A DNA stretch of 64,000 bases from an uncultured Gammaproteobacteria bacterium (GCA_964525495.1 CAZGHS010000005.1:12599-76598), one strand, 5' to 3'; numbered from the stretch's first letter, positions 2,063 to 42,866 are shown. Made by a program: numbers and translations. The notes: generated by a model not told the origin, from the letters alone.

Positions 2063-5000
2063 ATGAAAATGAAAAAATTACATATAGGAATACTTGTCAC
2101 TGTCTTGGTTGTGCTTATTGGGGTTCCGGTAACGGTTTCCGTCGGCGTGGCAGGATTAAACAAAGTAAACAAGCTAGCAAGTTCAAAAACTGCTAAATCA
2201 ACAACAGGTTTAGAAGCAGTTCCTCTCAATGGCCAAGTACTACAAGCAGCAACTGAGGCAACAGGTGCAAGCGTCATAAACTTTAATGCGCCAGCTATCT
2301 TTAACGAACCAACCAGATTCAATGCAGATATCGATGCAAGTGATAACAATCTCACATTGGGTGAAGGAGAATTAACAGCATCAAACGTAATTTACTCAAT
2401 TCAAGGCATCAATGGTATTACCGTAACAGGTGGACAAAATGCAGTAATATCCTTTACGGGTTTAACTGGAATTCTTGCGGGCGACGGAATAGAGCTCACA
2501 ACAGGCTCAACACCAACATTAACCAACACAGGTGTCACGTCGTTTCAGGGCGAGTCCGGAGCTATCACACTAGATGAAGGAGACGGGATCGAAATAAGTG
2601 GAACAGAAATTTCAAACGATGACCCCGGTACTGCTCAAGACATTTTCAAAATAATTGCAGTATCTGGACAAAATGATATTGAAGCTGACGAAAACAATGA
2701 CACATTAACATTCGTGGCTGGATCAAACATTACCCTCACAACAAATGACTCTGGTGACGCTCTAACAATTTCTTCTGCCGCAAGTGCTGTTAGCGGCTGG
2801 GAAGATGACGGCACTGATGTTAGGCTCTCAACTATCACAGATAATGTTGGTATCGGAACTGCAACGCCCGGTTCCAAGTTGCATGTAGTTGGTACGACAA
2901 CCATTTCATCTACCTTAACTCTGGGTGGAAGCATGGTTTTAGGAAGCGATACCGTCAATGATTTAACGGGGGACGGCCTTGCAGTGAGCGGCAGCGCATT
3001 AACTGTTAATTTAACAACATCAGGCAGCGCTGGTTCTACATCGTCAAATTCGGGATTAGAGGTCTCTACAGCTGGATTAACCATGATTAAAGGCTGTGCA
3101 GATGGAGAGCTTCTCAAGTGGGACAATACCGCAAATCTATGGGAATGTGCAACTGATGATGGTGGAACAACAGGCATAATCAATGTACAGGAAGGCGACG
3201 TAACCGTAAGTGCAAGTGCAGGTACGTTAGATTTCCTTGGAAATGATTTTGCATTAACAGAATCACCTGCCGGCGAGATCAACGTTGCCATTGATTACAC
3301 AAACTCAAATATTACCCGCACAAATCAAAATGAAACCATCACAGGGACTTGGACATTTAGTAATGTAATTACGGCAAATGGCGGATTGACTATTGCGGGA
3401 GGTCAATCATTAACGCTGGGCAGTGACGCGGTAACTGACCTTACAGGAACAGGCATAACAGTTTCAGGAGGCTCACTACAAACAACTTTAGGCACATCAG
3501 TTGACTTAGCTTCTGCAGAAGTAACGGGCACGCTCCCTGTTGGAAATGGCGGTACAGGTGCTACTTCGTATACTGCAGGATCAGTAGTATTTTCGAATGG
3601 AACTATTCTCACACAAGATAATACAAATTTATTTTGGGACGATACAAACAACCGTCTTGGTATAGGAGATAACTCGCCAAACTCTGCTTTAACAATTGGT
3701 GCAAGTGATGCCTTCCAAGTCAACTCATCCGGAGCAGTCGCAGCCGCAACAGGCATTTCTTCCTCAGGTAATTTAAACTTTACTGGATCAGGCACATACA
3801 CGCTTGCAAACATTGCGAGCGGGGCGTCCTTTAGCGGAAGCAGAATAGTTGGAGTATCTCAAACAGGTGTGTTAACCACCGTGGCTGATGGAAGTGACGA
3901 TCAAGTATTAACAACTGACGGCGCAGGCGTATATACCTGGAAAGACATTGGTTCAATCCTTGAACCGACAAATGCCTTTATTAACAACGGAAATTCATTT
4001 GCTGCTTCTGCGACATTAGGTACAAACGATACAAATAGTTTAGCACTTGAGACAGACGGGACGACTCGAATTACAATTCTCGCCACTGGCAATACAGGTA
4101 TCGGCGATGCATCTCCCGCGTCATTGTTTACAGTAGGCTCAGGAGATTTATTTCAAGTAAACTCATCAGGAGCAATCGCAGCAGCAACAGGAGTAACCTC
4201 ATCTGGAACGATTACATTTACGGGATTAGGCTCTGGTTCTGGGTCAACACTATGTATAGACGGGTCAAATCAGGTTGTAACCTGTGCAGTCTCTCCAGGA
4301 GATATAACAGCAGTGGGAGATATTACGTCTGGCGCAGCATTCGACGGTACTCAAGGCAATACATTGTATTTCGAAGGAACATCAATAGATGCGAACGAAA
4401 TTGCACTATCAGGTGCTGATGCAACGGTAGATCGGACAATTACACTTCCAGATCTTTCAGGCACAGTTGCTCTCTTAGAAAATTCACAAACATTTTCTGG
4501 AGCTAAAACATTTACTGCTGCCATGACAATTGACGGAAATTTAGCCATCAATAGCTCAAGTACAACTATCGGTGACTCTGGCTCTGACAGCTTAACAATC
4601 AATGCGACAATCTTAGTTGGTTCACCATTAGTATTCGAAGGTTCGACGGCTGACGGCAACGAGACAACCCTAACAGTAACTGACCCCACTGCAGATCGAA
4701 CTATTACTATTCCAGACCTAACAGGTACCGTTGCACTGCTTGAAAATGCACAAACATTCTCTGGAGCGAAAACCTTCAGCGCTGGACTCATCGTTTCTGC
4801 AAGTGGAGCATCAATAACAGGAGGAATAGATAATAACTCTGGAGGCATCACAGAGGCAGGAGCAATATCCGGAGTTACTACTTTGTCAGCATCTTCTACA
4901 GTAACGCTCACTGGTTTAGGTTCAGGGACCGGATCCTATTTGTGCTTGGACGGGTCAAACAATGTAGTTACATGTTCTGGAACAACGGGAGATATAACCG

Positions 5001-8000
5001 CAGTCGGTGATGTAACATCAGGCGCTGCATTTACGCAGACAGCAGGAAATGACGGAAACAATATATATTTTGAAGGATCAAGTGCTGACGGAAACGAAAT
5101 AGCCTTAACAGCAGCAGATCCAGGATCTGACTTAACGGTTACATTACCAGCGATCACGGGAACGTTAGCTTCTCTCGCAGGATCACAAACATTTACAGGA
5201 GCAAAAACATTCAATGCTACAACCACATTTGACGGTGCAATCGCTGCCAATACAGATATAGATCTCACATTTGCAGCGGCAGAAAACATGACTCTCACAA
5301 ACTCTTCTGCTTCTACAGATCAATTATCATTATCTATCACCGGTGTTACGACAGACGGAGTTGACGCGTTTGCAATTGCTTATACTCAAGCAGACGACGC
5401 TGATTCAACAGACACAAATAGTGCAGTAAATATAGCGTTAACATCATCCTCAGGCGATGCTGATGCCCTATACGGCCTCCAGTTTGCAGACTTTACCAGT
5501 GGCTCTGCAACTGAAACAGCGCTCCGATTCGGAACGGGTTTTGACAATATCCTCGAAATCGAAGGATCTACAGCAGATGCAAACGAAACATTTCTTACAT
5601 TCACAGACCCAACGTCAGATCGCACAGTTACATTCCCAGATGCATCAGGAACAGTGTGTTTGACATCTGGTAACTGTGCAGGTGTCGGTGGGGTAGGAAC
5701 AATTACAGCAGTCGGTGACATCACATCAGGGGCGGCTTTTACGCAGACCGCAGGCAACGATGGGAACAATATATACTTCGAAGGTTCAAGTGCTGACGGA
5801 AACGAAATAGCGTTAACAGCAGCAGATCCAGGGTCTGACTTAACGGTTACACTACCAGCAATAACAGGAACACTCGCGTCTTTGGCAGGTACTCAAACAT
5901 TTACAGGCGCAAAAACATTCAACGCAACAACTACATTCGACGGTGCCATAGCAGCTAATACAGATATAGACCTAACCTTTGCTGCTGCAGAGAATATGAC
6001 GTTAACAAATACGTCCGCCTCCTCAGATCAACTCTCCCTTTCAGTGACAGGAGTAACCACCGATGGTGTCGATGCCTTTGCAATTGCCTATACTCAGGCC
6101 GACGACGCTGATTCTACAGATACCAACAGTGCAATCAACATTGCTCTAACATCTTCATCGGGAGACGCCGACGTTTTCTATGGACTTCAGTTTGCAGATT
6201 TTACAGCAGGAACAGCAACTGAAACAGCGTTCAGAATCGGAACCGGATTCGATAATGTTTTAGAAATCGAAGGCAGCACGGCAGATGGCAATGAAACCTC
6301 CGTAGCGTTTGCTGACCCTACAGCCGATCGAACGGTCACATTCCCGGATTCATCTGGTACAGTTTGTCTCTCATCGGGAAACTGCGCTGGCGGCGCAGGA
6401 GGATCAAAATGGACAGATAGTGGAACGCTAACATATCTAACTGACTCAACTGACAGCATAACAATTGGTTCGACATCTGAATTGGCAAAATTAGCTGTCG
6501 ATGGCGACGCAGACGAAATTCAACTATTGATCCAAGGTAACGGCACCCAAACGTCAAGCCTATTAGTACTCGAAACCTCCGCTGGAACAGATCAATTAAC
6601 AGTATCGAATGCCGGAGCATTAGGGTTAGAAGGTGCAATCTCAGATATTACTGGTGCTACAGTTGAAATAAACGACGATCTTCAAGTAACTGGCAACGAC
6701 ATCTTAGATTCTGGTTCAACATCCCGAGTCACACTTGGATCTAATACTATATTAACAAACACAACAACAACGTTATCTGGAACAACAACGCTTACCGCAA
6801 GTTCGCTTGCAACACTTACTACAGCAGCCACACTAGATATGACTGCAACAACAACGCTAAACTGTACAGATTGTATTAACTTTGACGACCTATCAGATTC
6901 GCTATCACTTGATGCAGGTACAACAATAGCCTTAGGGACTAATACATTAACGCTTAACGCAAGCGGTACAGGGGATGTAATATTCCAGGACAATGGAACA
7001 CCGGTCTTGACTTTCAACGACTCAGGCAATACTGTCTGGTCACTTCCAGCAGGAAACAATATACAAATTGACGGAGCCACAGCAGATTCAACTACAACTA
7101 CCGGCGTTGTTGATGTCGACGTAGATTCCGCAACAGACAATAACATCGGTATGTCGATTGATTATCAAGATACAAATACCGGAGCTTCACAAACAAAATA
7201 CGCCCTGAGAACAGATATAACCATTGATACAAATGGAACCGGTAACGACACGGTGTATGGAAACTACATCTCATTTACTCAGGACGACGCGGCAGCCACC
7301 GCATATGGCTTATATGTAACAGGTGAGGATCGCAACTATTTCTCGGGAAATGTTGGAATCGGAGACAGCTCACCTACAGCTGCATTAACAGTAGGTTCGG
7401 GTGATGCATTCCAAGTAAACTCATCAGGTGCTGTTGCAGCTGCAACAGGGATAACTTCTTCAGGAACAATTACATTCTCAGGGTTGGGCACCGGTGTAGT
7501 GCAGTCCAACGGCTCAGGAGTTCTTTCCTCTGGTGCGCTTGATCTAGCAGGAGGCGCAAGCTATATAACTGGTGTCCTTCCTCTTGGAAATGGTGGCACT
7601 GGATTCTCTACGTATACTCAGGGAGACTTATTATATGCATCTGCAGCAAATACACTTTCAAAACTAGCTGTCGGTGGAAACACTACTGTCTTAACAGTAG
7701 CAGGAGGAGTACCTACATGGGCTACTGCTACTGTCGCGTTTAATAACATTTCAGGCGGAACCAATACAACTGCGGCAATGGTTGTCGGAACAGGATCATC
7801 CCTTAACTTTACAGGCTCAGGAACAATTAATGCCTCTACTCTATTGGGATCAACATGGGCGTCTCCAGGGACAATCGGATCAACTGCACCAAATACTGGT
7901 GCATTCACTTCACTTACAACATCAGGAAATACATCACTAACTACCGGAGCTGGCAACGACACAACAATTGGCAACGCCACCGGGACTTTCGAGTTAGTTT

Positions 8001-11000
8001 CGGACGCATTAGATATTTCAACAACAGGCGCGCTTTCAGGTGCAACGGGCTTATCGTCCTCTGGAAATCTGACCTTCACAGGTTCTGGAACATATACGCT
8101 CGCAAACATTGCGTCTGGTGCGTCTTTCTCAAACAATCGACTTGTCCAAACAACAAGTGCAGGTGTGCTTTCAACCATCCCAGATGGAAGCACTCCAAAC
8201 CAGGTACTAATCACCGACAGCAATGGCAATTTCTCTTGGACAAGCGCAGCTGGGGTTATTGCTCCAGACTCACTAGATTTCACAGAATTCAGTGACTCGA
8301 TGTCTCTCGATGCTTCAACTTCAATTGCTTTTGACGCTGCAGAAGTACTTACGCTAAACGCAGCAACTGTGGATACCACCACCACAGGCGGTGTACTAGA
8401 CATGAATATTGATGCAGGGAACGCAGCAGTGATTGGATTAAATGTAGACTTTGCGCAATCCAACGGTGCAACAGCAGCAACAGACGCAGTCGCACAAAGG
8501 CTTACATTATCCGCAAATGATGCTGACGGCGACATGTTTGGATTACAAATAGTAGGAGCTGCAACAACGAACGCAGCTGCAGGAAGTTACGAGGCAGCCC
8601 TCTCAATAGACAATGTTGAAGATACTGTGGCATCCATGACCGACGCAATCCTCATAACATCATCAGGAGTAAATAATGGTGTAACAGACGCCATCGATAT
8701 ATCCGCAGCAAACATTAACAACGCTATTAATGCAGGTGCAAATTTCATACTTATGGATGGAATTCGCATATTCGAAGGTACAACAGGCACCATAACAATC
8801 GAAGATACTGCAGGTAACGACCTCATGACTATCGCTGATGGCGGAACAGTCGGTAATGCATCCATAACAGGCACGCTTGCTGTGTTAGGATCTACGATTG
8901 GACTCGACAGTGATGCTGATGCAGATAATTTGATAGGAACAGCAGCAGCAGGTGGCGCTGCAGCTTCAAATCTTTATTGGGGGAATAGGCTTCTCTGTGA
9001 TGCCACACAAGTAAACTGTGGATGGTCCGCAGTAGGTGGCAATGCTCCATGGACGACAACATCAAATGTGGTAAATCTTAATACTGCAACAGATAACGTA
9101 ACTGTAGGATCTGCAACAAATTTAGCAAAACTCGCAGTTGATGGCGACACAGACGAAATACAGTTACTAATCCAAGGCAACGGAACACAGACGGCAAATC
9201 TTGTAGTATTCGAAACATCAGCAGGGACGGATCAACTGACGCTATCAAACGCGGGTGCCTTAGCAATCGAAGGTGCAATTTCCGACATAAGTGGGACAGT
9301 TTTAGAAGTTAACGACGATCTGAAAGTAACAGGCAACGATATTATCGACTCAGGTGACGTAACACGAATATCATTAGGAGCAACCACAACACTTACTAAT
9401 TCCGCTACGACACTATCTGGAACAACGACCCTTACGGCTACCTCATTGGCCACGTTTTCTACAGCTGCAACACTCGACATGACATCTACAACAACACTTA
9501 ACTGTACTGACTGTGTTAATTTCGACGACATGTCGGACTCCCTTGCACTCGACGCGTCAACCTCAATAGCCTTCGATGCCGCTGAAGTATTAACACTCGA
9601 TGCAGCATCAACAGATACTACTACTACTGGTGGCGTGCTAGACTTCAACATTGACGCAGGCAATGCGGCTGTCCTAGGTTTGAATATCGATTTTGCTCAG
9701 TCCAACGGTGCAACAGCAGCAACAGACGCAGTAGCACAAAGGCTAACCTTATCAGCAAATGACGCAGACGGAGACATGTTTGGTTTACAAATCATCGGCG
9801 CCGCAACAGCAAATGCTGCAGCTGGTTCTTACGAAGCTGCAATATCGATAGATAATGCTGAAGACACTGCAGCTTCCATGACAGATGCAATTTTAATCAC
9901 CTCATCAGGCGTAAATAATGGTGTAACCGACGCGATAGATGTCTCTGCTGCAAACATAAACAACGCAATCAACGTAGGTGCAAACTTCATATCAATGGAC
10001 GGGGTGAGAATGTTTGAAGGTTCAACGGGAACACTTACTTTTGAAGACACGTCCGGAAATGATTTAATGACGATTGTTGATAATGGCACAAATGGAAATG
10101 TAACGATCACAAACAATCTCTCAGTAACAGGCACAATCACTGCTAACACAGATGAAACAATCAATGGACTAGATATCAACGCAGGTGCAATATCTGACGC
10201 AACGAGCCTAGCTATCTCTTCAGCAGCAAGCACGGCAATTGCACTAACCAGAAGTTCGGCTGGACAATGGATGTCTTTCAATGACGGCACAGATGCCTGG
10301 GGTTTATATAACACAGCTGGCTCGCCGGAAGGAGTGCTCGCAGCCAATACAGGTGCACTTTCAATGGATACCACTAACGGCACTTTGTATGTCAAAACTG
10401 ACGATGGTGACAATACTGGCTGGGTAAATCTCGCAACCGGAGGAAGTTCTCCATGGCAAACAACATCTAACGTTACCAATCAAGTCACTTCAACAGACGA
10501 TGTGACAGTCGGCTCAGCTGTTGATTTAGCAAAACTGGGTGTCGATGGAGATTCAGACGAAATTCAATTCTTAGTACAAGGCAACGGAACACAAACAGCT
10601 GGCTTACTAGTATTAGAAACCTCAGCAGGAACAGATCAATTTACGGTATCTAATGCTGGTGCAGTGGGTATCGAAGGAGCAATCTCAGATATTACCGGAA
10701 CAGTTGTTGAAGTAAATGATGATTTGAAAGTAACAGGCAACGACATCATTGATTCAGGTGACACAACACGTATTTCACTTGGCGCAACAACAACCTTAAC
10801 AAATACAACAACAACGCTATCAGGCACAACAACCTTGACTGCATCATCTTTAGCAACTCTGACAACTGCGGCAACGCTTAGTATGGCTTCAACAACAACA
10901 TTAAACTGTGGTGATTGTATCGACTTTGATGATATGAAAGACTCGCTATCAATAGATGCTGCAACAGATATTAACCTTGGAGCTAACGCGCTTACAATCG

Positions 11001-12943
11001 ATATGGATTCGACGGGCGATTTCTCAATTAGAGATGGTACAACAGATATTATGGCATTCACAGATAGTGGTGCTGTAAGTATCACTCCAACATCCGGACA
11101 GAATCTCACCGTAACAGCGGCAGGTGCAGGAACAGTAAATGTTACAACTGCAACAGGATCACAAACATACACATCTTCAGTTGTATCAGGAACAACAACA
11201 ACTTCTGCATTTATATTCGATGCAACTGCAATTACAACAGGTACAGGTATGTACGTAACAACGGATAGTATTACGCAAGGAAATCTAATGGATATTTCAA
11301 CAACGGGCAATACGCTAACATCAGGAAATGTATTAAATCTAAGTTCCACATCAACAGCATTAACCTCAGGAAGACTAGCATCACTTGATTGGTCTCCAGG
11401 ATCAACAACAACTGCTACGGGCGATTTATTCCGTATTAATATCGGCTCAAACGGAAACGCAGCAAATCTATTCAATGTAACAGATAATACGTCGTCATTA
11501 TTCAGTGTGGCAGAAAATGGTATTACTTCAGCTGTACCACACTCATTCACAGCTGCTGGAGATGTTGCTATTGCCTACGACCTACAATTCACCAATCAAA
11601 CAGCATCATACATCAAATCCAATGCACCACTATACATAGAAGCAGGCGAAGCTTTTGAAAGCAACGATATTACAATTCGCTCATTCAATAGTGGTGGAAT
11701 AATTCTTGAAGGATCAGGTAACACATCTGTAAAGGGATCAGATGTAGTCATTTCAAGCGATGGAACATTGGATTCAACAAATATCGGCGGAACAGGTTTA
11801 TTGGCGTACGGAGCAATCTGCGCTGATGATTCTCTCGACAATGCTGACGATTGTATTGATGCTGCACGTTCAGCTGGAACTGTATACGGTATTGCTTCAA
11901 GTTTCGCAATTGACGACGTTGCTGAAAACTTCCCAACGCTTGACTCTTCTATCGAAGCTGCAGATATAGTTGCACTCGACTATCAAGAACCACTAGATAC
12001 TCCAGTAGCAAGCGACGCTGCACAGGCATATGAAACAGAGTTCGTAAAGAAAGCCACTTTATCTGATAATCAAAAGGTACTTGGTGCAATCTCCGGCAAA
12101 CCAGGTGTGTTACTCGGAGGATGGAGTCAAAAGCGTGATCCAAGATCTGTACAAGAAGTAGCCGTAGGTTTATCTGGGCGTATACCGATAAAAGTGACCT
12201 CAGTAAATGGCCCAATTGAGCCAGGAGATTATATTGCGTTGTCAAACACGCCAGGTGTCGGAGCAAAAGCAAATGATAAGGGGTATGTAGTTGGTATGGC
12301 GCTTGGTCGATACGATAACGCCGATTCATCACACATAGGCTCGGTCTTAGTTTTCTTACAAAGAATGTATTACAATCCAATCACATCTGAATTAGCAGGA
12401 GAAAACGAGTTAACTCCTGAGTCATTATCTTCTACAACAATGCCAAACCTCTTAGTTTCAGGAACTGCAGAATTTAGCGACGTAAAAGTAACAGGAGAGA
12501 TATTAGCTGGTAACCTCTCGATCACAGGTCTTGCAGCAGGGGGCGGAGCAGATGTGTCAACTCTAACTGGCCCATTACGAATACAACCAGACGCAGGAAA
12601 CAATGTTGAAATAATGGGCGGCAAAGTAATTATCGATACAGAGGGAAATATCTATGCGGATGAAGGAACCTTAACCGCAAAAACAATTTCCGCCGAAAAG
12701 ATCAATGTATCTGGACAGGGGAGCGATGCCTCCATTGGTTCAGCAACAATTGCAGCATGGCAAACACAAGTTACAATAGATTCATCCGCTGTAACAGAAA
12801 ACTCACAAATATTTGTAACTGCTAAATCCCGTTCACGACAACCACTCGCTGTAACAGCAACGGTTTCAGGTGAATCATTTACAGTTGAGATACCAGAGGA
12901 ACAAGAAGAAGAACTCGTATTCAGCTGGTGGATAATAAACTAA
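2063..12943 (+). CDS. Giant (3,626 aa) Thr/Gly/Ser/Ala-rich repetitive surface protein, fibre/adhesin-like, with an N-terminal signal anchor
   Basis: Single uninterrupted ORF. N-terminal hydrophobic segment ILVTVLVVLIGVPVTVSVGVAGL. Extreme T/G/S/A/D/N bias with many nested internal repeats, including recurring GNGGTG and TFTG/SGAKTF motifs. Non-repetitive roughly 390-aa C-terminal domain. Reverse-strand ORFs across it are low-complexity artefacts. Confidence 0.85.
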   Translation: MKMKKLHIGILVTVLVVLIGVPVTVSVGVAGLNKVNKLASSKTAKSTTGLEAVPLNGQVLQAATEATGASVINFNAPAIFNEPTRFNADIDASDNNLTLGEGELTASNVIYSIQGINGITVTGGQNAVISFTGLTGILAGDGIELTTGSTPTLTNTGVTSFQGESGAITLDEGDGIEISGTEISNDDPGTAQDIFKIIAVSGQNDIEADENNDTLTFVAGSNITLTTNDSGDALTISSAASAVSGWEDDGTDVRLSTITDNVGIGTATPGSKLHVVGTTTISSTLTLGGSMVLGSDTVNDLTGDGLAVSGSALTVNLTTSGSAGSTSSNSGLEVSTAGLTMIKGCADGELLKWDNTANLWECATDDGGTTGIINVQEGDVTVSASAGTLDFLGNDFALTESPAGEINVAIDYTNSNITRTNQNETITGTWTFSNVITANGGLTIAGGQSLTLGSDAVTDLTGTGITVSGGSLQTTLGTSVDLASAEVTGTLPVGNGGTGATSYTAGSVVFSNGTILTQDNTNLFWDDTNNRLGIGDNSPNSALTIGASDAFQVNSSGAVAAATGISSSGNLNFTGSGTYTLANIASGASFSGSRIVGVSQTGVLTTVADGSDDQVLTTDGAGVYTWKDIGSILEPTNAFINNGNSFAASATLGTNDTNSLALETDGTTRITILATGNTGIGDASPASLFTVGSGDLFQVNSSGAIAAATGVTSSGTITFTGLGSGSGSTLCIDGSNQVVTCAVSPGDITAVGDITSGAAFDGTQGNTLYFEGTSIDANEIALSGADATVDRTITLPDLSGTVALLENSQTFSGAKTFTAAMTIDGNLAINSSSTTIGDSGSDSLTINATILVGSPLVFEGSTADGNETTLTVTDPTADRTITIPDLTGTVALLENAQTFSGAKTFSAGLIVSASGASITGGIDNNSGGITEAGAISGVTTLSASSTVTLTGLGSGTGSYLCLDGSNNVVTCSGTTGDITAVGDVTSGAAFTQTAGNDGNNIYFEGSSADGNEIALTAADPGSDLTVTLPAITGTLASLAGSQTFTGAKTFNATTTFDGAIAANTDIDLTFAAAENMTLTNSSASTDQLSLSITGVTTDGVDAFAIAYTQADDADSTDTNSAVNIALTSSSGDADALYGLQFADFTSGSATETALRFGTGFDNILEIEGSTADANETFLTFTDPTSDRTVTFPDASGTVCLTSGNCAGVGGVGTITAVGDITSGAAFTQTAGNDGNNIYFEGSSADGNEIALTAADPGSDLTVTLPAITGTLASLAGTQTFTGAKTFNATTTFDGAIAANTDIDLTFAAAENMTLTNTSASSDQLSLSVTGVTTDGVDAFAIAYTQADDADSTDTNSAINIALTSSSGDADVFYGLQFADFTAGTATETAFRIGTGFDNVLEIEGSTADGNETSVAFADPTADRTVTFPDSSGTVCLSSGNCAGGAGGSKWTDSGTLTYLTDSTDSITIGSTSELAKLAVDGDADEIQLLIQGNGTQTSSLLVLETSAGTDQLTVSNAGALGLEGAISDITGATVEINDDLQVTGNDILDSGSTSRVTLGSNTILTNTTTTLSGTTTLTASSLATLTTAATLDMTATTTLNCTDCINFDDLSDSLSLDAGTTIALGTNTLTLNASGTGDVIFQDNGTPVLTFNDSGNTVWSLPAGNNIQIDGATADSTTTTGVVDVDVDSATDNNIGMSIDYQDTNTGASQTKYALRTDITIDTNGTGNDTVYGNYISFTQDDAAATAYGLYVTGEDRNYFSGNVGIGDSSPTAALTVGSGDAFQVNSSGAVAAATGITSSGTITFSGLGTGVVQSNGSGVLSSGALDLAGGASYITGVLPLGNGGTGFSTYTQGDLLYASAANTLSKLAVGGNTTVLTVAGGVPTWATATVAFNNISGGTNTTAAMVVGTGSSLNFTGSGTINASTLLGSTWASPGTIGSTAPNTGAFTSLTTSGNTSLTTGAGNDTTIGNATGTFELVSDALDISTTGALSGATGLSSSGNLTFTGSGTYTLANIASGASFSNNRLVQTTSAGVLSTIPDGSTPNQVLITDSNGNFSWTSAAGVIAPDSLDFTEFSDSMSLDASTSIAFDAAEVLTLNAATVDTTTTGGVLDMNIDAGNAAVIGLNVDFAQSNGATAATDAVAQRLTLSANDADGDMFGLQIVGAATTNAAAGSYEAALSIDNVEDTVASMTDAILITSSGVNNGVTDAIDISAANINNAINAGANFILMDGIRIFEGTTGTITIEDTAGNDLMTIADGGTVGNASITGTLAVLGSTIGLDSDADADNLIGTAAAGGAAASNLYWGNRLLCDATQVNCGWSAVGGNAPWTTTSNVVNLNTATDNVTVGSATNLAKLAVDGDTDEIQLLIQGNGTQTANLVVFETSAGTDQLTLSNAGALAIEGAISDISGTVLEVNDDLKVTGNDIIDSGDVTRISLGATTTLTNSATTLSGTTTLTATSLATFSTAATLDMTSTTTLNCTDCVNFDDMSDSLALDASTSIAFDAAEVLTLDAASTDTTTTGGVLDFNIDAGNAAVLGLNIDFAQSNGATAATDAVAQRLTLSANDADGDMFGLQIIGAATANAAAGSYEAAISIDNAEDTAASMTDAILITSSGVNNGVTDAIDVSAANINNAINVGANFISMDGVRMFEGSTGTLTFEDTSGNDLMTIVDNGTNGNVTITNNLSVTGTITANTDETINGLDINAGAISDATSLAISSAASTAIALTRSSAGQWMSFNDGTDAWGLYNTAGSPEGVLAANTGALSMDTTNGTLYVKTDDGDNTGWVNLATGGSSPWQTTSNVTNQVTSTDDVTVGSAVDLAKLGVDGDSDEIQFLVQGNGTQTAGLLVLETSAGTDQFTVSNAGAVGIEGAISDITGTVVEVNDDLKVTGNDIIDSGDTTRISLGATTTLTNTTTTLSGTTTLTASSLATLTTAATLSMASTTTLNCGDCIDFDDMKDSLSIDAATDINLGANALTIDMDSTGDFSIRDGTTDIMAFTDSGAVSITPTSGQNLTVTAAGAGTVNVTTATGSQTYTSSVVSGTTTTSAFIFDATAITTGTGMYVTTDSITQGNLMDISTTGNTLTSGNVLNLSSTSTALTSGRLASLDWSPGSTTTATGDLFRINIGSNGNAANLFNVTDNTSSLFSVAENGITSAVPHSFTAAGDVAIAYDLQFTNQTASYIKSNAPLYIEAGEAFESNDITIRSFNSGGIILEGSGNTSVKGSDVVISSDGTLDSTNIGGTGLLAYGAICADDSLDNADDCIDAARSAGTVYGIASSFAIDDVAENFPTLDSSIEAADIVALDYQEPLDTPVASDAAQAYETEFVKKATLSDNQKVLGAISGKPGVLLGGWSQKRDPRSVQEVAVGLSGRIPIKVTSVNGPIEPGDYIALSNTPGVGAKANDKGYVVGMALGRYDNADSSHIGSVLVFLQRMYYNPITSELAGENELTPESLSSTTMPNLLVSGTAEFSDVKVTGEILAGNLSITGLAAGGGADVSTLTGPLRIQPDAGNNVEIMGGKVIIDTEGNIYADEGTLTAKTISAEKINVSGQGSDASIGSATIAAWQTQVTIDSSAVTENSQIFVTAKSRSRQPLAVTATVSGESFTVEIPEEQEEELVFSWWIIN
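4994..6409 (+). repeat. Near-identical tandem direct repeat (2 x about 708 nt = 2 x 236 aa) inside the giant gene; a more diverged third copy lies upstream (about 4301-4993)
   Basis: Protein segments starting ITAVGDVTSGAAFTQTAGNDGNNIYFEGSSADGNEIALTAADPGSDLTVTLPAITG... (from nt 4994) and ITAVGDITSGAAFTQTAGNDGNNIYFEGSSADGNEIALTAADPGSDLTVTLPAITG... (from nt 5702) are roughly 95% identical over 236 aa. The nucleotide copies are also highly similar. Confidence 0.85.
6482..10970 (+). repeat. Dispersed intragenic module repeats in the giant gene: module M1 (LAKLAVDGD..DEIQLLIQGNGTQT...NCTDC.NFDD) at about 6482, 9122 and 10526; module M2 (SIAFDAAEVLTL...GVNNGVTDAID...ITGTL) at about 8317 and 9568
   Basis: Translated segments of 150-190 aa recur with roughly 70-90% identity at these offsets. 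Spacing between M1 copies is 2640 nt and 1404 nt. Confidence 0.8.
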
Positions 12944-15900
12944 ATATTTTAAAGAATATGTTTAAAAGAATTTTTAATAGAAAAAATAAGCAAACGAAAA
13001 TTTTTGTAACCTCACTTGCACTTGTTCTAATTGCCGGTGTAATCTTCATGATCTGGTATCCAACACGTGCTCGAGCAGCGTGGTTTGATGACAATTATAG
13101 TTACCGCCAACCAACATCTTTTACACACAACGCAGCACTTACCAATCGTCGCGTCACCATAACTATTGATACCGCAACGCTAATTACAAATGGCAAAATG
13201 CAATCAGATTGTGACGACACTCGGTTTACTGATAACAGTGGAAAAGTACTACGCTATCAATTAACAGGAGCCTGCAATAATGCTGCCACTACATATGATG
13301 TTGCTTTTCCAACTATTATCAACGGCTTAAATGCAGCATATATATATTATGGAAACGCCTCTGCTGCATCTGCAAGTGATGCAACTGTCGCTTCACTAAC
13401 AAGCTTGTCTCCAAGCGGGGGTGCAGCAGCACAAGGTTCAGAAGAAAAAGGTGAAACGCCAGTACTCTACTGGTCTCTGAATGATGCAACAGGGACAACA
13501 GTTCAAGATGGCAGTATAAACAATAACGACGGCACTCGTTCAAATGCAACTTGGAAAACACCAGATAACTGTTATGCAAATAGTTGTCTTCAATTTGACG
13601 GTTCTGGCGACAGTGTAAGTAAAACATATTCAAGTGATACTGAGCTCAACCCAGGCACGGGTGATTTTTCTGCAGAACTTTTCTTTAAACATCCAACCGC
13701 TATTAGTGCTAATGAATTTCTAGTTAGTCGATTTAGCGGCTCAGGTTACAAAATATATATGAACTCCAGTGGGAATATCTGTTTTGGAATAGATGATGAT
13801 TCAACCTGGACACCAGATGACGCTGCCTGTACAACAATCACCTACAATGACAATAACTGGCATTTTCTTTCAATTGTGAAGTCGGGTACATCGTCGATCA
13901 CCGTATATATAGACGGCAATCAACAAGCGCAAGATGCATCAATTGCCGCAACCGCCACTATCTCAGGATCCTCTCCAACCATATATCTAGGTATCGATTC
14001 TGACGGCACATCAAACAGTTGGAACGGATTTATCGACGAATTCAAAGTATTCAATTATGCAAAAACAACAGCGCAAATTAAATTGGATCTTGCCGCAAAA
14101 AATTCCTTAAACGGAGTAGCTCAATCTATGGGTGATCCTAATGCAAATAGCTTAACACAAGGACTAGTCGGGTGGTGGAAAACTGATGAAGGTTCAGGTA
14201 CTTCAACGACAGCAGATGCTTCAGGAAATGGTATCACCGGAAACCTCACTGCAATAGATAGTGGCGATTGGGTAGGAGGAAAATATGGTTTTGGACTAGA
14301 TATGGATGGCAGCGCAGAATACATTGACATGAACGACCCTTCAAGTGGAGTACTAGACTTTGTTGATGGAGTAGATTTCACTCTCTCCGCCTGGATATAC
14401 AATGACACGGTAACAACGGAAGATGTAATTATGTGCAAAAAAAACATTCCTACTGATAGTTCTGCGGGATATTGTCTGATGAGATATGCAAATGCGAATG
14501 GCGGTGTTATATGTCTCTATATAGCAGATGGAACAGACACATGGGAGATGTGCTCATCAACAACAGTGACAACTGCAGCTACTTGGAATCATGTTGTCGC
14601 GGTAGTAAACGATAATAGTCCATCCGAGTCAAATATTTATGTAAACGGTTTACCAACTAAAACCACGACATTAGGAACCATGAGTAATGTAGATTCTCTC
14701 GCGATTGGTGAAGATTTTAGGATTGGATCCTACGGATCAGGTAGTGCGGGGCAACCGTTCGATGGAAGAGTAGATGACACAAGAGTCTACAATAGAGCAC
14801 TAACTGCAGGAGAAGTAAGACAATTATATACTACACCACCACCACCTGTCGGTTATTGGAAATTCGACGAAGGCACTGGGACATCCGTAAGTGATTCAAG
14901 CGGTAATGGCGTAACCGCAACTATTGTCGACGGAGGTGGAAATGTCGGTAGATGGACTCCTGGGAAATTTGGTAAAACATATTTTTCAGCAGGAAGAAAT
15001 GGTTCTGCCGATACTATTAGTCTTGCAAGTTCGACCAATGTAGGAACCCAACACACGGTATCCTTTTGGGCCAACTTTGATACGTTCGAAGATGGATCAG
15101 GCAATGGCACCGCAGTTGTTGGAAACGGAACAGATGCAAGTGCTGGGTATGCTTTCTATATTGACAATACCAGTATTTATTCTCGTCCTGCAGCCACAAG
15201 TGCTGTTTCTATTACTAATACATTAAGCACAGACACTTGGTATCACATCGCAGTTGTCAGAGACGGTACAACGGTTAAATTTTATGCCAATGGCATACAA
15301 ATAGGAGCTACTCAGACACTAGGCGAAAATAACAACTATAGCTACGATAATCTTTCAAACTTTGAGGCTGGTACTCAAGCCTTTCCTGTCGAAGGGCAGC
15401 TTGATGAAGTAAAAGTGTATAACTATGCACGCACTCAAGCACAAATCATAGAAGACATGAACGGTGGACATCCGATCGTTGGCACACCGATTGGTGGACC
15501 AGTAGGCCATTGGAGTCTTGACGATGGAAATGGAACAACAGCCCAAGACAAATCTCCAAACAACAACGACTTAACATTATCAACTGCATCATGGACAAAC
15601 GACGGAAAATTAAATAAAGCTTGGAACGGAACAGGTGCACTATGGCTATCCCGAGCTGATGATGCTGATTTTGATTTTATCGCCGGTGCTGATTTCTCCC
15701 TCAGTGCTTGGGTCAGATCTGATAGTGCCAGTAATCCAGCTGCCGCAGAATATATAATCAGTAAAGAAACATCATCAGCCGGATACGCACTTTGGTTCAC
15801 AACCGGCGGGGAAATAGTCTGCGGTATCGACGACGATGCGTCATCCTTCCCCGAAGATTCTGCCGGAGATACCGCTTCAAATACCGACTATTATGACGCA

Positions 15901-17691
15901 ACCTGGCATCATGTCATTTGCGTCCGCAATACTGTCTCCGGAAGGCTTGAACTCTACATAGACGGGAAACTATTCGACGCTGATACCTCACTCTCGGCAA
16001 CAGGTGATTTATCAAACGCAGATTCACTCACAGTCGGCGATCGCAATGCTACCAACGACACAGACGATTTTAATGGAGATATTGACGAAGTCAAAATATA
16101 TCGCGCAGCACTTTCATCAACCGATGTCCTAACCGAATATAGTCAAGGGAAAATTGGGGTGCTAGGAGCAGTATCCACCGCCAGTGATGGTACAACAGCC
16201 AGTTTTGCCTCTGCTCGAGATTATTGTGTCCCTGGTGATACTTCTACCTGCGATGCACCGGTTGGTGAATGGAAATTAGACGAAAATACAAGCACATCAG
16301 CATTAGATACCAGTGGCAATGTCGTAACTGGGACATTCAATGGTAATGCTACTTGGGGTAGAGGAAAGTTTGGATCAGCGGTCAATCTACCAGATGGGAC
16401 GACTGATTTCATTAGTTTAGGAGATAATTTAGACATGGCAGATGGAGATGCCTTCAGCATTTCGTTATGGTTTTACCCTACTGCAGACACGGCACAATCA
16501 GACTTAGTTTCAAAAAAACTCTCAACATCAGCGTCTGATATAGGATACCAAATTACATGGTTTCATACTACATTTGGTGGCAATACCTGTCTCTATGCTT
16601 CTGATGGATCTGGAGCTGGGTCTGATCAATACGAAACATGTACTGCTGACAATACCACAACCACACTTAATACGTGGTATCATCTTGCAGTTGTATACGA
16701 CAACACATCAACTGCGGGGTCTGGGATCTATCTTAATGGTGTGAACGTGGAACATACTCCATATGAAGCATGTACAAACTGTGCTGCTTTGTCTGAAATC
16801 GGAACACTTTCAAACGCAAACACACTTCGAATAGGAGCTAACAGCGGAAGTTCAACAAGCTTTCAGGGTAGAATTGATAATGTCAAAATCTACAGATACG
16901 CGCGCACTCCAGCACAAATTGCTTGGGAATTCAACCAAGGAAAACCTGTAGCACTATATAAAATGGATGAGTGTTCAGGAACCACGATATACAACAGTGT
17001 TGTAAGCGCAACCAACGGATCCTCAGGTATCAATGGCACTTGGTCAGGATCAGGCGGAGGCAATACTGCAGCGGGGAGTTGTACATCTGCAAACTCCGCT
17101 CATGCCTGGTACAACGGAGCAACAGGCAAATACTCAAATAGTTTAGATTTTGATGGAAGCGATGATGTTGTCACGGTAACAAATACATCTCGAATCGATC
17201 TTAACGAAGCCTTAACACAAGGGCTTACTTGGTCCGCTTGGGTAAATCCTGATTCTGACGGAGAGGGGGATGCTGGCAGAATCTTTGATAAAGGTACGAA
17301 TACGTATTGTAGAACAGGCAATGAGTCTGGGGGGCGAGTCGATCTCATATGCAGACTTGATCTTACAACAGATGCCGATTTTACTGTTTCCTCCGCTATC
17401 CCCACTGGGCAGTGGTCACATGTAGCACTCGCCTGGTCAAATGACAGTGATGACGAAGTCACAGTCTGGGTTAATGGTCGAGCCAATACTTCATCTGCGA
17501 CATTTGCCGGCGATCCAGCTACAGACACCAGCAATCTATTTATTGGAAATAACAGTGCCGGGTCTGCAACCTTTGATGGCAGGATCGACGATGCAAGAAT
17601 CTATAGTTACGAGTTAACATCTCAGCAGATAAAAATGGTAATGAATGAGTCATCATCACTGCGGTTCGGACCGCAGACAGGGTCGCCGTAA
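12928..17691 (+). CDS. DUF2341 domain plus about six LamG (concanavalin A-like lectin/Laminin_G_3) domain surface protein, 1,587 aa, N-terminal signal anchor
   Basis: N-terminal TM segment then AWFDDNYSYRQP...DDTRFTD.SGKVLRYQL, the DUF2341 signature. Repeated LamG units with hallmark W[WK].DEGSGT..D.SGNG...L....W, FT.SAW, W.HV..V and FDG.IDDV[RK]IY.RAL. Start overlaps the giant gene by 16 nt. Confidence 0.8.
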   Translation: MDNKLNILKNMFKRIFNRKNKQTKIFVTSLALVLIAGVIFMIWYPTRARAAWFDDNYSYRQPTSFTHNAALTNRRVTITIDTATLITNGKMQSDCDDTRFTDNSGKVLRYQLTGACNNAATTYDVAFPTIINGLNAAYIYYGNASAASASDATVASLTSLSPSGGAAAQGSEEKGETPVLYWSLNDATGTTVQDGSINNNDGTRSNATWKTPDNCYANSCLQFDGSGDSVSKTYSSDTELNPGTGDFSAELFFKHPTAISANEFLVSRFSGSGYKIYMNSSGNICFGIDDDSTWTPDDAACTTITYNDNNWHFLSIVKSGTSSITVYIDGNQQAQDASIAATATISGSSPTIYLGIDSDGTSNSWNGFIDEFKVFNYAKTTAQIKLDLAAKNSLNGVAQSMGDPNANSLTQGLVGWWKTDEGSGTSTTADASGNGITGNLTAIDSGDWVGGKYGFGLDMDGSAEYIDMNDPSSGVLDFVDGVDFTLSAWIYNDTVTTEDVIMCKKNIPTDSSAGYCLMRYANANGGVICLYIADGTDTWEMCSSTTVTTAATWNHVVAVVNDNSPSESNIYVNGLPTKTTTLGTMSNVDSLAIGEDFRIGSYGSGSAGQPFDGRVDDTRVYNRALTAGEVRQLYTTPPPPVGYWKFDEGTGTSVSDSSGNGVTATIVDGGGNVGRWTPGKFGKTYFSAGRNGSADTISLASSTNVGTQHTVSFWANFDTFEDGSGNGTAVVGNGTDASAGYAFYIDNTSIYSRPAATSAVSITNTLSTDTWYHIAVVRDGTTVKFYANGIQIGATQTLGENNNYSYDNLSNFEAGTQAFPVEGQLDEVKVYNYARTQAQIIEDMNGGHPIVGTPIGGPVGHWSLDDGNGTTAQDKSPNNNDLTLSTASWTNDGKLNKAWNGTGALWLSRADDADFDFIAGADFSLSAWVRSDSASNPAAAEYIISKETSSAGYALWFTTGGEIVCGIDDDASSFPEDSAGDTASNTDYYDATWHHVICVRNTVSGRLELYIDGKLFDADTSLSATGDLSNADSLTVGDRNATNDTDDFNGDIDEVKIYRAALSSTDVLTEYSQGKIGVLGAVSTASDGTTASFASARDYCVPGDTSTCDAPVGEWKLDENTSTSALDTSGNVVTGTFNGNATWGRGKFGSAVNLPDGTTDFISLGDNLDMADGDAFSISLWFYPTADTAQSDLVSKKLSTSASDIGYQITWFHTTFGGNTCLYASDGSGAGSDQYETCTADNTTTTLNTWYHLAVVYDNTSTAGSGIYLNGVNVEHTPYEACTNCAALSEIGTLSNANTLRIGANSGSSTSFQGRIDNVKIYRYARTPAQIAWEFNQGKPVALYKMDECSGTTIYNSVVSATNGSSGINGTWSGSGGGNTAAGSCTSANSAHAWYNGATGKYSNSLDFDGSDDVVTVTNTSRIDLNEALTQGLTWSAWVNPDSDGEGDAGRIFDKGTNTYCRTGNESGGRVDLICRLDLTTDADFTVSSAIPTGQWSHVALAWSNDSDDEVTVWVNGRANTSSATFAGDPATDTSNLFIGNNSAGSATFDGRIDDARIYSYELTSQQIKMVMNESSSLRFGPQTGSP

Positions 17692-21575: not shown

Positions 21576-21598
21576 AATATAATAAAAAAGAGGTGCAT

Positions 21599-25723: not shown

Positions 25724-25789
25724 TTTGTCATAGGAACAGCGTAAAAAATAGCTTTATCATTCTCCTTAAAGATGCTACTCTAATAGAGA

Positions 25790-30493: not shown

Positions 30494-30500
30494 ACAGATT

Positions 30501-32249: not shown

Positions 32250-32258
32250 AGGATTTCT

Positions 32259-33995: not shown

Positions 33996-34018
33996 GTAAA
34001 ACGGTATCCTATCGATAT

Positions 34019-34585
34019 ATGAAAAATGCAAAAATAGGTGTATTAGTACTTTTAATTGCGATAGCATTCACATCGTGTAGCTCAAAGCAACCAACAGAGT
34101 CGATCAGTCAAAGCGCAAATACTGTTGCATCCGCAGCTCCTCAAATTGATCCACAAGTACTCAAAGATACGTCAAAATGGAAGAAAGTTTCAAGCGATTC
34201 TCGATTTTTCAAATTTAACTTAATGGTTCCTGAAGGTGCAAAATATCAGTTCTCACCAGATACCGTCATGGGAACAGAAAACGGCGTATTTATCGCAGAA
34301 GATAGATTTCCGAACGGCTTAACTATTGAATACAATGCATTAAACGACCGAGATGCCCGGACTGTCACATTCAAATCTGACTATGTTAAGGGTAAACCAT
34401 CAGATATTGATTTTGGATTACCGAACGCAATAGTCGCGGAAGGAACGAATACTCGGGGACTCGCATATACACGTTACTTAGTTCGTAAAGATGACAATCT
34501 GTATATTCTATCAATCCAGACCAAGAACCCAGCGTATACCGAGGTATATAAAAACATAATCAAGAGCTTCAAAATCGAGAAATAA
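34019..34585 (+). CDS. Putative lipoprotein (hypothetical)
   Basis: MKNAKIGVLVLLIAIAFTSC signal with a lipobox-like FTSC. The ORF track starts at an upstream TTG (33992) overlapping the previous gene. No recognisable family. Confidence 0.5.
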   Translation: MKNAKIGVLVLLIAIAFTSCSSKQPTESISQSANTVASAAPQIDPQVLKDTSKWKKVSSDSRFFKFNLMVPEGAKYQFSPDTVMGTENGVFIAEDRFPNGLTIEYNALNDRDARTVTFKSDYVKGKPSDIDFGLPNAIVAEGTNTRGLAYTRYLVRKDDNLYILSIQTKNPAYTEVYKNIIKSFKIEK

Positions 34586-34592
34586 AATCTAA

Positions 34593-35754: not shown

Positions 35755-35760
35755 ACAAGA

Positions 35761-36666: not shown

Positions 36667-36741
36667 ACCAACAACATTAATAGCAGTGATGAATAACCGA
36701 TTCTAAAAACCTATCGAGAGCAGTATAATAGCAAATACTGC

Positions 36742-37929: not shown

Positions 37930-37938
37930 AATTAAATT

Positions 37939-39456: not shown

Positions 39457-39459
39457 GAG

Positions 39460-42791: not shown

Positions 42792-42866
42792 ATTCCAAAT
42801 TCAGTATATCACTCAAAATATAGTATGCACGCCCACGATCCGGTATAATACCAAAAGAACAACAGC

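Follow-up and report, generated by a model that had tools for sequence, protein, structure and literature searches.

The conserved C-terminal tip of a giant protein

The window (i.e., the whole stretch of 64,000 nucleotides that was analysed) contains a giant ORF of 3,626 amino acids (Table 1), whose translation carries an N-terminal hydrophobic anchor (MKMKKLHIGILVTVLVVLIGVPVTVSVGVAGL). Translating window positions 11750–12940 yielded the tip sequence quoted in the original prediction, and this tip is the unique, non-repetitive C-terminus of the ORF, as had been proposed. When repeats of the 397-aa tip were sought in the other 3,229 residues via blastp, the best match only reached E=0.071, and HMMs of the two tip modules matched nothing else when run against all six reading frames of the window. 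A Pfam search with the full-length 3,626-aa protein gave no match.

In an exhaustive HMMER search of 1.84 billion representatives of 50%-identity clusters, 5,997 tip relatives were retrieved at E≤1e-3, of which 1,861 reached E≤1e-10 and 86 reached E≤1e-30; conservation of the tip is far above chance. The blocks that had merely looked conserved (GKPGVLLGG...VAVGLSGRIPIKV...GPIEPGD...SNTPGVGAKA) indeed make up the conserved core, and in a 140-copy alignment the core columns G112, G143 and G159 of module A are invariant, next to D160 (99%) and S165 (96%). The proteins with this tip carry unrelated passengers (DUF2341, F5/8C, Spherulin4, CBM4_9, and collagen, with collagen repeats in relative P0066), and the closest genomic relatives, as well as most of the named relatives, are found in CPR genomes.

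The tip had originally been regarded as a single domain ending in an acidic tail. Instead, it has more than one domain: a neck leads into module A, which a short linker joins to module B (mean pLDDT of 82.7 for the AF2 model of the tip). The acidic EEQEEE stretch is non-conserved and situated just ahead of the last beta-strand of the model (389–396), and the true C-terminus of the protein is the conserved hydrophobic F-x-W-W-I-I-N.

Table 1. Positions of the giant ORF and of its C-terminal features in the window
Feature	Protein residues	Window position (nt)	Strand	Remark
Giant ORF carrying the cassette		2063..12943	+	Translation
Penultimate conserved stalk domain	about 3040–3220	11180..11722	+	
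Tip		11750..12943	+	
Neck	3240–3284	11780..11914	+	Translation; just 5′ of the predicted scissile bond
Neck Cys pair	C3253 and C3264	11819–11821 and 11852–11854	+	
Predicted autocleavage bond	D3284/D3285	11914/11915	+	Aligned with the phi29 site
D-V-A-E motif	D3285–E3288	11915..11926	+	hhalign and hmmsearch alignment to phi29 S/DFAE
Module A, phi29 gp12 D4-like autochaperone	3285–3439	11915..12379	+	About eleven beta-strands
Short linker	3440–3461	12380..12445	+	pLDDT about 50
Module B, N-terminal part	3462–3554	12446..12724	+	Extended beta-rich segment
Module B, C-terminal beta-sandwich	3555–3626	12725..12940	+	K1-lyase_C type; ends F-S-W-W-I-I-N

Module A resembles the phi29 gp12 D4 autochaperone

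Profile comparisons and structure prediction both identify module A as a divergent homologue of the D4 autochaperone of phi29 gp12 (MEROPS/Pfam Peptidase_G2). Aligning 140 module A copies with the C-terminus of phi29-like gp12 via hhalign yielded a probability of 96.5% (E=7e-10), and a profile of the tip and 50 relatives matched PDB 3gqh/3gqk, the C-terminal fragment of the phi29 preneck appendage, with E=9e-4; the sequence alignment with phi29 spans mostly the first half of module A. Moreover, Peptidase_G2 (PF11962) is matched by 7 of the 51 aligned members, with bit scores among relatives of 32.1 (P0059), 28.8 (P0118), 27.6 (P0088) and 25.2 (P0117) at a Pfam cut-off of 25 bits. Since neither the tip nor the full protein matched PF11962 at E≤1, and the curated threshold was missed, the G2 link rests on profiles, relatives and predicted structure.

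In the AF2 model, module A (tip residues 56–210) shows about 11 strands with a pLDDT mostly above 90. Its best Foldseek match in the PDB was pre-mature gp12 (3suc, E=3.5e-4; TMt of 0.53 for 3gqh_A), and in BFVD a "Preneck appendage protein" (E=1.4e-10, TMt 0.65), while the predicted architecture is consistent with the tandem beta-tulip described for phi29 D4. The resemblance to auto-cleaving chaperones of phage fibres, originally called superficial, is real homology, and the region proved to be neither an unrelated simple domain nor poorly conserved among homologues. Foldseek also matched module A to the phage decoration proteins 8pkh and 9kzj, and Pfam Phage_cement and XM1_gp53 matches were obtained among the relatives. 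Because the beta-tulip fold is described as common to gp12 D4 and cement/decoration proteins (bioRxiv 10.1101/216911), these matches fit gp12 D4 as well. Cement/decoration proteins with this fold (lambda gpD, P74-26 gp87, BB1, T1) are trimer-forming protein–protein interaction modules, but they are free-standing capsid proteins without D-x-A-E, whereas module A is built as one domain into a giant cellular protein.

Like module A, phi29 gp12 D4 (PF11962; PDB 3GQH, 3GQK and 3SUC) sits at the C-terminal end of a long fibre or spike, and both share a beta-rich fold (as predicted for module A), a D-x-x-E at the N-terminal boundary of the domain and detectable sequence homology, although only about 16% identity remains in the structural alignment. 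In gp12, D4 is required for trimerisation and is afterwards cleaved off (PMC3357383; PMC4690869; PMC9863714). However, D4 ends its protein, whereas module A follows a long stalk yet leaves ~190 residues downstream, i.e., the linker and the 165-aa module B.

A predicted cleavage site behind a cysteine-bearing neck

At the start of module A, hhalign pairs ID/DVAENFP with WS/DFAEYFE (the slash marking the bond), such that D3284/D3285-V-A-E3288 coincides with phi29 S/D-F-A-E, the D-F-A-E of which stands at residue 1 of chain 3gqh_A. The 3gqh profile alignment likewise opens at this chain residue (DFAEYFES vs. DlAEnYpt). The predicted D3284/D3285 bond is situated within ...SSFAIDDVAENFPT..., and its motif columns are conserved to 99% (D), 96% (A) and 97% (E), with D-x-[AG]-E being found in 136 of 145 module copies. 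The P1 residue is Asp here and variable in the family, versus Ser in phi29. The D and E of the phi29 motif are reportedly catalytic, and the protease type suggested by the aligned motif is Asp/Glu (G2), not Ser–Lys (S74). The auto-processing put forward in the original prediction is supported, albeit of the G2 type rather than the Ser–Lys type that it had proposed to look for.

The neck, which would become the new C-terminus if the predicted cleavage occurs, harbors the Cys pair noticed before, and this pair is real and belongs to the family pattern: the 45 residues preceding D-x-A-E contain at least two Cys in 84 of 128 module copies, one in 4 and none in 40. Such a conserved neck pair sets the family apart from phi29 gp12. 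Since the Peptidase_G2 Pfam matches in relatives begin about 10–40 residues before the D-x-A-E motif, the Peptidase_G2 model reaches into the neck.

Upstream of the neck, the penultimate domain displays 39–68% identity across over 20 cassette-bearing relatives, and the mature protein probably has no large domain beyond it. Its AF2 model (pLDDT 72.7) has few strands, and Foldseek gave weak matches only, all of them to phage HylP tail-fibre hyaluronidases (E≥0.086); by these models, it is possibly a triple-stranded beta-helix.

Module B ends in a beta-sandwich of the phage tailspike type

The linker between both modules has a median length of about 120 aa among 126 relatives with both modules. 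Heptad-like linkers were read by eye in the sequences of P0010, P0003 and L002, and in some relatives the linker looks like a coiled coil. The N-terminal part of module B is characterised by the motif L-x-x-Q...G-K-x-x-I-D-x-x-G-N, and L276, Q279 and G299 are invariant in a 79-copy alignment of the module. With a pLDDT of 74–87, few strands assigned by DSSP in the model of the monomer and BFVD matches to phage tail-fibre-like proteins, this part is probably an intertwined trimeric beta-structure.

The terminal beta-sandwich is modelled with a pLDDT above 94. PF24146 (K1-lyase_C) matched tip residues 327–380 marginally (27.5 bits vs. a cut-off of 27), and was matched by 26 of 51 relatives (best E=8.9e-11). 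Foldseek, moreover, aligned the sandwich with its C-terminal counterparts in the phage tailspikes 9k4a, 7eea, 4urr and 7w1c, with an rmsd of 2.4–3.6 Å over 73–88 columns. Tailspikes with PF24146 (the K1 lyase of Klebsiella phage NTUH-K2044-K1-1, 7W1C; K64-1 S2-4, 9K4A; cyanophage Pam1, 7EEA; Sf6 TSP) end in a beta-sandwich about 70 aa long, three copies of which make a dome on the trimer axis of the K1 lyase (PMC8822698). Module B differs in its conserved F-x-W-W-I-V-N end, and in being located downstream of the predicted self-cleavage, so that it may be discarded, whereas tailspikes retain their sandwich. No lyase beta-helix was detected upstream of module B.

In 130 of 132 relatives, module B lies at most 10 aa from the C-terminus, with F-x-W-W-I-I/V-N as the family end motif, and some relatives with module A only (P0002, P0005, P0006, P0190) run on into Pro/Thr/Ser-rich tails. 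Collagen (P0066) and the weak HylP matches hint at a trimeric stalk, and the coiled-coil-like linkers and the K1-lyase_C dome are further partners of trimer type.

Retention, sorting or removal of the cassette

We favor, with moderate confidence, the view that the tip is a C-terminal trimerisation/folding cassette that cuts itself off, and hold it to be similarly probable that this cassette is bipartite and either comes from phage tail spikes or is shared with them. It is rather unlikely, albeit worth weighing, that the cassette is retained, whether it stays uncut or remains attached non-covalently after cleavage, with the beta-sandwich and beta-tulips forming the working fibre tip; a glycan-binding cap contacting the host cell would be an example of the same limited plausibility. 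Such retention would agree with the homologous beta-sandwich being part of the mature spike in the K1 lyase and other tailspikes (PMC8822698; Foldseek 9k4a, 7eea and 4urr), and with module B being strongly conserved and always terminal. However, receptor-binding tips usually vary with their target, whereas the cassette is constant over thousands of proteins with unrelated passengers, and the near-invariant D-x-A-E argues for the bond being cut. Cleaved phi29 D4 remains bound until it is released by ATP, which this release reportedly requires, and none is expected outside the cell, in further agreement with a retained head. The protein at hand is membrane-anchored, cellular and presumably extracellular, and ATP-dependent release is unlikely to apply to it. 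Because conservation across thousands of proteins is the opposite of target-specific tips, the receptor-binding or catalytic head of the original prediction is disfavored: the tip is probably not a receptor-binding head, and looks like an auto-chaperone with a phage-tailspike-type end domain instead.

It is considerably less plausible that module B (alone or with A) is a generic C-terminal sorting or anchoring signal for an export/attachment machinery or for envelope binding. An analogy with the T9SS C-terminal domain or wall-binding domains, in which the C-terminus would be cell-proximal, is just as improbable. A small conserved beta-sandwich at the extreme C-terminus behind many different passengers would suit such a signal, and the Pro/Thr/Ser-rich tails of A-only relatives resemble wall-spanning linkers, but in structure B comes closest to domains at the distal end of phage spikes, the protein is already membrane-anchored at its N-terminus, and the conserved autoproteolytic motif upstream would be left unexplained. 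A search for sorting domains (T9SS CTD, PEP-CTERM, LPXTG and similar) in NCBIfam/Pfam yielded no match, which also counts against a sorting signal, and the last 9 residues (LVFSWWIIN) form a beta-strand closing the terminal domain (pLDDT >94), not a TM helix.

That the gene encodes a phage or prophage tail spike or capsid cement instead of a cellular surface protein is highly improbable. Although the closest structural relatives of both modules are phage proteins, the ORF sits directly 3′ of ATP synthase beta, and the genes after it encode LamG, PKD and GSDH surface proteins, PMT-type glycosyltransferases and a GH8 enzyme. Moreover, 0 of the 18 other large ORFs were phage-like in a Pfam scan, a tblastn search of 50,697 phage genomes with the tip gave no match, and both the N-terminal membrane anchor and the CPR origin of the closest genomic and most of the named relatives speak against a phage gene.

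A Peptidase_S74 endosialidase-type chaperone with a Ser–Lys dyad, finally, is effectively refuted, even though it follows the same general logic of a self-cleaving C-terminal fibre chaperone, S165 (96%) and K173 (91%) of module A are conserved (S3394 and K3402), and P0190 carries a true S74 domain, though upstream of module A: PF13884 matched neither the tip nor 51 relatives, a regular-expression search for S-[DE]-x-[RK]-x-K found no such dyad motif in the tip, the P1 of the aligned site is variable with a conserved Asp rather than Ser at P1′, and the predicted fold is beta-rich like phi29 D4, unlike the helical-coiled-coil S74 fold, the two chaperone folds being described as different (PMC4690869). 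Members of this type (K1F endoNF, T5 pb1, GA-1 gp12 and eukaryotic MyRF) are also C-terminal, drive beta-helical fibre trimerisation and then self-remove, yet with unrelated fold and chemistry, i.e., a Ser–Lys dyad in a helical and beta-hairpin domain.

Proposed assembly and maturation

Some observations count against a self-removing cassette, in that a throw-away pro-domain has no obvious need for a module as strongly conserved as B, that residues follow the chaperone where phi29 has its last domain, that a presumably extracellular protein would find no ATP for a release that in phi29 is reportedly ATP-dependent, and that the S74 chaperone upstream of A in P0190 is odd for a simple terminal pro-peptide. 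Since the cassette ends proteins with unrelated passengers, its role would be a generic one.

In the self-removing cassette that we propose, export would proceed N-to-C, with the N-terminal anchor keeping the protein in the membrane. The cassette would emerge last but fold first, setting three chains in register and templating the folding of the fibre-like stalk from C to N. Upon completion of the trimer, the pair of D3285 and E3288 would cut D3284/D3285 and free an A–B fragment of 342 aa (35.8 kDa, predicted). The mature protein (~326 kDa) would then have the disulfide-stapled neck together with the conserved penultimate domain as its true distal end, and, given removal of the cassette, this membrane-distal end is to be sought upstream of nt 11915. 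The cassette lacks annotation, and ultra-small (CPR) bacteria have thousands of surface proteins that end in the same one.

A conserved and modular C-terminal region

Translation of the last 397 codons of the giant open reading frame (the tip) agreed exactly with the stretch quoted in the original prediction, and a blastp comparison with the preceding 3,229 residues of the giant protein gave a best E-value of 0.071, in keeping with its description as non-repetitive. Used alone as a query, the tip retrieved eight relatives in a word-indexed protein search, and the family became visible when 1.84 billion cluster representatives were scanned exhaustively with HMMER, which yielded 5,997 relatives at E ≤ 1e-3 and, at the stricter E ≤ 1e-10, 1,861. 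The tip is strongly conserved among these 5,997 relatives; the lack of conservation that would have spoken against the original prediction was not seen, and the earlier observation of a distinct C-terminal region was confirmed. Single-sequence searches with the tip revealed no matches in PHROGs, NCBIfam, or the PDB (via phmmer), tblastn revealed none in 50,697 phage genomes, and a marginal match to K1-lyase_C was the sole result from Pfam.

Alignments with relatives showed the tip to consist of a neck, module A, a linker, and module B, the last three of which are referred to as the cassette.

Features of the giant gene and the region downstream of it
Feature	Window position (nt)	Strand	Protein residues	Remarks
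Giant ORF	2063–12943	+	3,626 aa	Hydrophobic anchor at N-terminus
Penultimate domain	11180–11722		~3040–3220	Conserved, unannotated; the ~180 residues just before the neck
Tip	11750–12943	+	Last 397 codons	Span includes stop
Neck			3240–3284	Carries Cys pair C3253, C3264
Module A			3285–3439	Starts D-V-A-E
Linker			22 aa
Module B			3462–3626
Next ORF	12928–17691	+	1,587 aa	N-terminal TM, DUF2341, six LamG-type domains
Further large secreted proteins, PMT-type glycosyltransferases, GH8 enzyme	17814–28390 and 29006–44513			Run of genes

Modules A and B occurred together in 126 of 156 representative relatives, in which the linker had a median length of ~120 amino acids and in some cases a coiled-coil appearance. 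In 130 of 132 cases, no more than 10 residues lay between the end of module B and the C-terminus. Module A could reach two to three copies per protein, and the HMMs of both modules found no match elsewhere when the window was translated in all six frames.

The cysteine pair pointed out earlier is real and follows a family rule, i.e., the 45 residues preceding the D-x-A-E motif contained at least two cysteines in 84 of 128 module copies, one in 4, and none in 40, as a disulfide would produce. The “acidic tail”, on the other hand, had been taken for the protein end and is a non-conserved stretch preceding the last β-strand of the model (389–396), the true end being a conserved F-x-W-W-I-I/V-N.

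Homology of module A to the phi29 gp12 D4 autochaperone

Four independent routes converged on the identification of module A as an autochaperone of the phi29 gp12 D4 type. In Pfam, Peptidase_G2 (PF11962, “IMC autoproteolytic cleavage domain”) matched 7 of 51 aligned relatives, and it scored at or above its cut-off in the relatives P0059, P0118, P0088, and P0117. The alignment HMM matched PDB entries 3gqh/3gqk, the C-terminal fragment of the phi29 preneck appendage (E = 9e-4), with the 3gqh alignment opening at chain residue 1 (DFAEYFES... vs. DlAEnYpt...). Moreover, when 140 module A copies were compared by hhalign with the C-terminal end of a phi29-like gp12 (genomic locus L004), the probability was 96.5% (E = 7e-10), and ID↓DVAENFP was paired with WS↓DFAEYFE. 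Finally, in the AF2 model of the tip (mean pLDDT of 82.7), module A mostly exceeded 90, and Foldseek returned pre-mature gp12 (3suc, E = 3.5e-4) as the best PDB match, 3gqh_A at a TMt of 0.53, and a “Preneck appendage protein” as the best BFVD match (E = 1.4e-10, TMt 0.65). Further matches were phage cement and decoration proteins, consistent with the D4 domain of gp12 consisting of tandem β-tulip domains, a fold common to decoration proteins (bioRxiv 10.1101/216911). D4 is needed for gp12 trimerisation and is missing from the mature spike (PMC3357383, PMC4690869, PMC9863714).

The cassette is a divergent, unannotated, and very widespread form of a known phage maturation module. What is new is the architecture of chaperone, linker, and terminal sandwich, and its setting in giant membrane-anchored CPR proteins, for which no literature on the cassette was found.

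Predicted autocleavage site and products

The crystallised phi29 fragment starts at the Asp of D-F-A-E, which corresponds to D3285-V-A-E3288 in the giant protein. Of 145 module copies, 136 contained D-x-[AG]-E, with Asp, Ala, and Glu conserved in 99%, 96%, and 97% of the 140-copy alignment, respectively, whereas the P1 residue was variable (Ala in 39%, then Asp, Tyr, Ser, and others). This motif pattern fits a mechanism based on the downstream Asp/Glu rather than on a nucleophile at the cut site. Because of the conserved Asp/Glu and the variable P1, autocleavage is predicted between D3284 and D3285 (i.e., between nt 11914 and 11915). It would yield a 326 kDa N-terminal part and a 35.8 kDa A–B fragment; the predicted semi-tryptic peptides are SAGTVYGIASSFAID at the C-terminus created by the cut and DVAENFPTLDSSIEAADIVALDYQEPLDTPVASDAAQAYETEFVK at the N-terminus. 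In phi29 gp12, D692 and E695 are reportedly the catalytic residues, and release of D4 is said to require ATP. The auto-processing envisaged in the original prediction is supported by the homology of module A, albeit with another protease family than the Ser-Lys type proposed. An S74 Ser-Lys chaperone is rejected, as no Peptidase_S74 match was seen in the tip or in 51 aligned relatives and the tip lacks an S-[DE]-x-[RK]-x-K motif.

Two relatives with more than one module A, P0045 and P0048, lacked D-x-A-E in the copy adjacent to module B (which reads ...AQDYPT...), so that cleavage, if any, would fall at the upstream copy. This upstream copy has kept the motif in P0048, and is truncated short of the motif in P0045.

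Module B and the upstream domains

The last ~70 residues of module B scored 27.5 bits against K1-lyase_C, i.e., at the threshold (cut-off of 27), while 26 of 51 relatives matched this Pfam family (best E = 8.9e-11). These residues were modelled at a pLDDT above 94, and Foldseek matched them to the terminal β-sandwiches of the phage tailspikes K64-1 S2-4, Pam1, Sf6, and K1 lyase, in the last of which a dome on the axis of the trimer is built from three such sandwiches (PMC8822698). The preceding ~95 residues hold the motif L-x-x-Q...G-K-x-x-I-D-x-x-G-N, of which the L, Q, and final G were invariant in a 79-copy alignment. They were modelled with moderate confidence as an extended chain, which is typical of intertwined trimeric fibres when predicted as monomers.

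The passengers ahead of the cassette were diverse, and included DUF2341, F5/8C, Spherulin4, CBM4_9, and collagen repeats. Since collagen is an obligate trimer, its presence supports the idea of a cassette that serves trimeric passengers. The penultimate domain of the giant protein is common to many cassette-bearing relatives (with three repeats in P0017) and carries the motif W-S-P-G-S-x-T-T-A-T-G-D-L-F...F-T-A-A-G-D-V-S-x-A-Y-D-L-x-F-T-N-Q-T-A-S. It had no match in Pfam or among PDB sequences, and its model (pLDDT of 72.7) yielded weak Foldseek matches, all to phage HylP triple-β-helix (hyaluronidase) tail fibres, suggesting that it may be a triple β-helix.

Some relatives showed unusual combinations. 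In P0190 (653 aa), Peptidase_S74 immediately precedes a module A whose D-L-A-E is intact and which is followed by a long Ser/Thr/Pro-rich tail; these two types of self-cleaving chaperone in tandem are hard to reconcile with module A as a simple terminal pro-peptide. P0004 (527 aa) starts with a cytoplasmic-type DNA-binding LuxR/sigma-70 region 4 followed by a hydrophobic segment, and P0066 (1,124 aa) with a MerR/HTH_17 DNA-binding domain and contains collagen repeats, both proteins also carrying module A. In make-up, the two suggest regulators that are tethered to the membrane and bear a fibre-like ectodomain, and they recall eukaryotic MyRF, except that their cleavage site would be outside.

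Genomic setting and distribution

The giant gene is cellular. It lies downstream of an ATP synthase beta gene and upstream of genes for surface proteins (LamG, DUF2341, PKD, and GSDH), a GH8 enzyme, and several glycosyltransferases of the PMT type. A Pfam scan of 18 other large ORFs showed no phage-like gene among them. A prophage origin is contradicted by this context and by the empty phage-genome search.

The next ORF starts at a GTG 16 nt ahead of the stop of the giant ORF, an overlap that suggests translational coupling; DUF2341 also precedes the cassette as a passenger in relative P0046. The subsequent run includes a GSDH-PKD-LamG protein with Pro/Thr linkers, a 1,376-aa protein without Pfam matches, and a Calx-beta/fn3/CarboxypepD_reg protein with a C-terminal TM, and is followed by at least five paralogous PMT-type (dolichyl-phosphate-mannose-like) glycosyltransferases and the GH8 enzyme. 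Together, these genes look like a surface-protein and glycosylation island.

A single-protein genomic scan found relatives in three genomes, the closest being from Ca. Woesebacteria, WWE3, and a 1-Mb MAG labelled Gammaproteobacteria. The latter (locus L002, CAZFGX010000001.1) is a single ~1 Mb contig labelled “uncultured Gammaproteobacteria” with a cassette relative of 43% identity; its genome size and cassette gene suggest that it is a mislabelled CPR organism. In a collection of 5.8 billion proteins, all relatives were “hypothetical protein”, mainly from CPR lineages, and nearly all were without a precomputed Pfam domain. Some module A proteins (P0203, P0206) bore the label Candidatus Woesearchaeota (DPANN archaea) and others that of Elusimicrobia or Acetothermia; either the cassette has spread across domains among ultra-small episymbionts, or CPR contigs were mis-binned.

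Possible folding and maturation of the giant protein

If the protein is exported by a Sec-type route while anchored at its N-terminus, the C-terminus would exit last. The cassette could then fold by itself, trimerise, and align three chains in register, after which it would nucleate fibre folding from C to N, in the manner of collagen C-propeptides and of the chaperone domains of phages. The trimer would place D3285 and E3288, and the cassette would subsequently cleave itself.

The main rival explanation is that the distal cap is retained, covalently or non-covalently, since ATP is not expected extracellularly and module B, given its strong conservation, is not obviously throw-away. A receptor-binding head, as also put forward in the original prediction, is disfavoured, and no model match supports a C-terminal sorting signal.

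A more far-reaching reading, which we regard as rather improbable, holds that the cassette is a general ATP-independent extracellular folding and maturation device for giant trimeric phage-fibre-like adhesins of CPR/Patescibacteria, and perhaps DPANN, with the conserved, cleaved A–B cap acting as a mask that can come off or as a mechanical fuse. A non-covalent junction would then be what autoproteolysis at D↓D-x-A-E leaves behind, and the cap would be lost upon host contact or force, exposing the real adhesive end, a logic comparable to that of SEA and GAIN domain autoproteolysis. If so, a phage-origin maturation system would have been repurposed throughout a bacterial radiation.

In CPR bacteria, whose way of life is attachment to other cells, few genes are as conspicuous or as poorly understood as those for giant surface proteins. 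If self-cleavage of the cassette is the right reading, these proteins would resemble phage tail fibres in being trimeric, folding from the C-terminus first, and maturing by self-cleavage, so that the annotated C-terminus would not be in the working protein and the host-binding part should be sought upstream of nt 11915. This reading predicts a 35.8 kDa fragment starting with DVAENFP that is lost in D3285N or E3288Q mutants, and provides a family signature (D-x-A-E...G-R-x-P-x-K-V...G-D, ending in W-W-I-V-N) for thousands of “hypothetical” proteins without a Pfam domain. Such maturation in bacterial adhesins was already suspected by the phi29 authors (bioRxiv 10.1101/216911), and a phage maturation mechanism would thereby reach a large cellular protein family. 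This kind of mechanism is known; its scale, its place outside the cell, and a prediction that can be tested sharply nonetheless merit mention.
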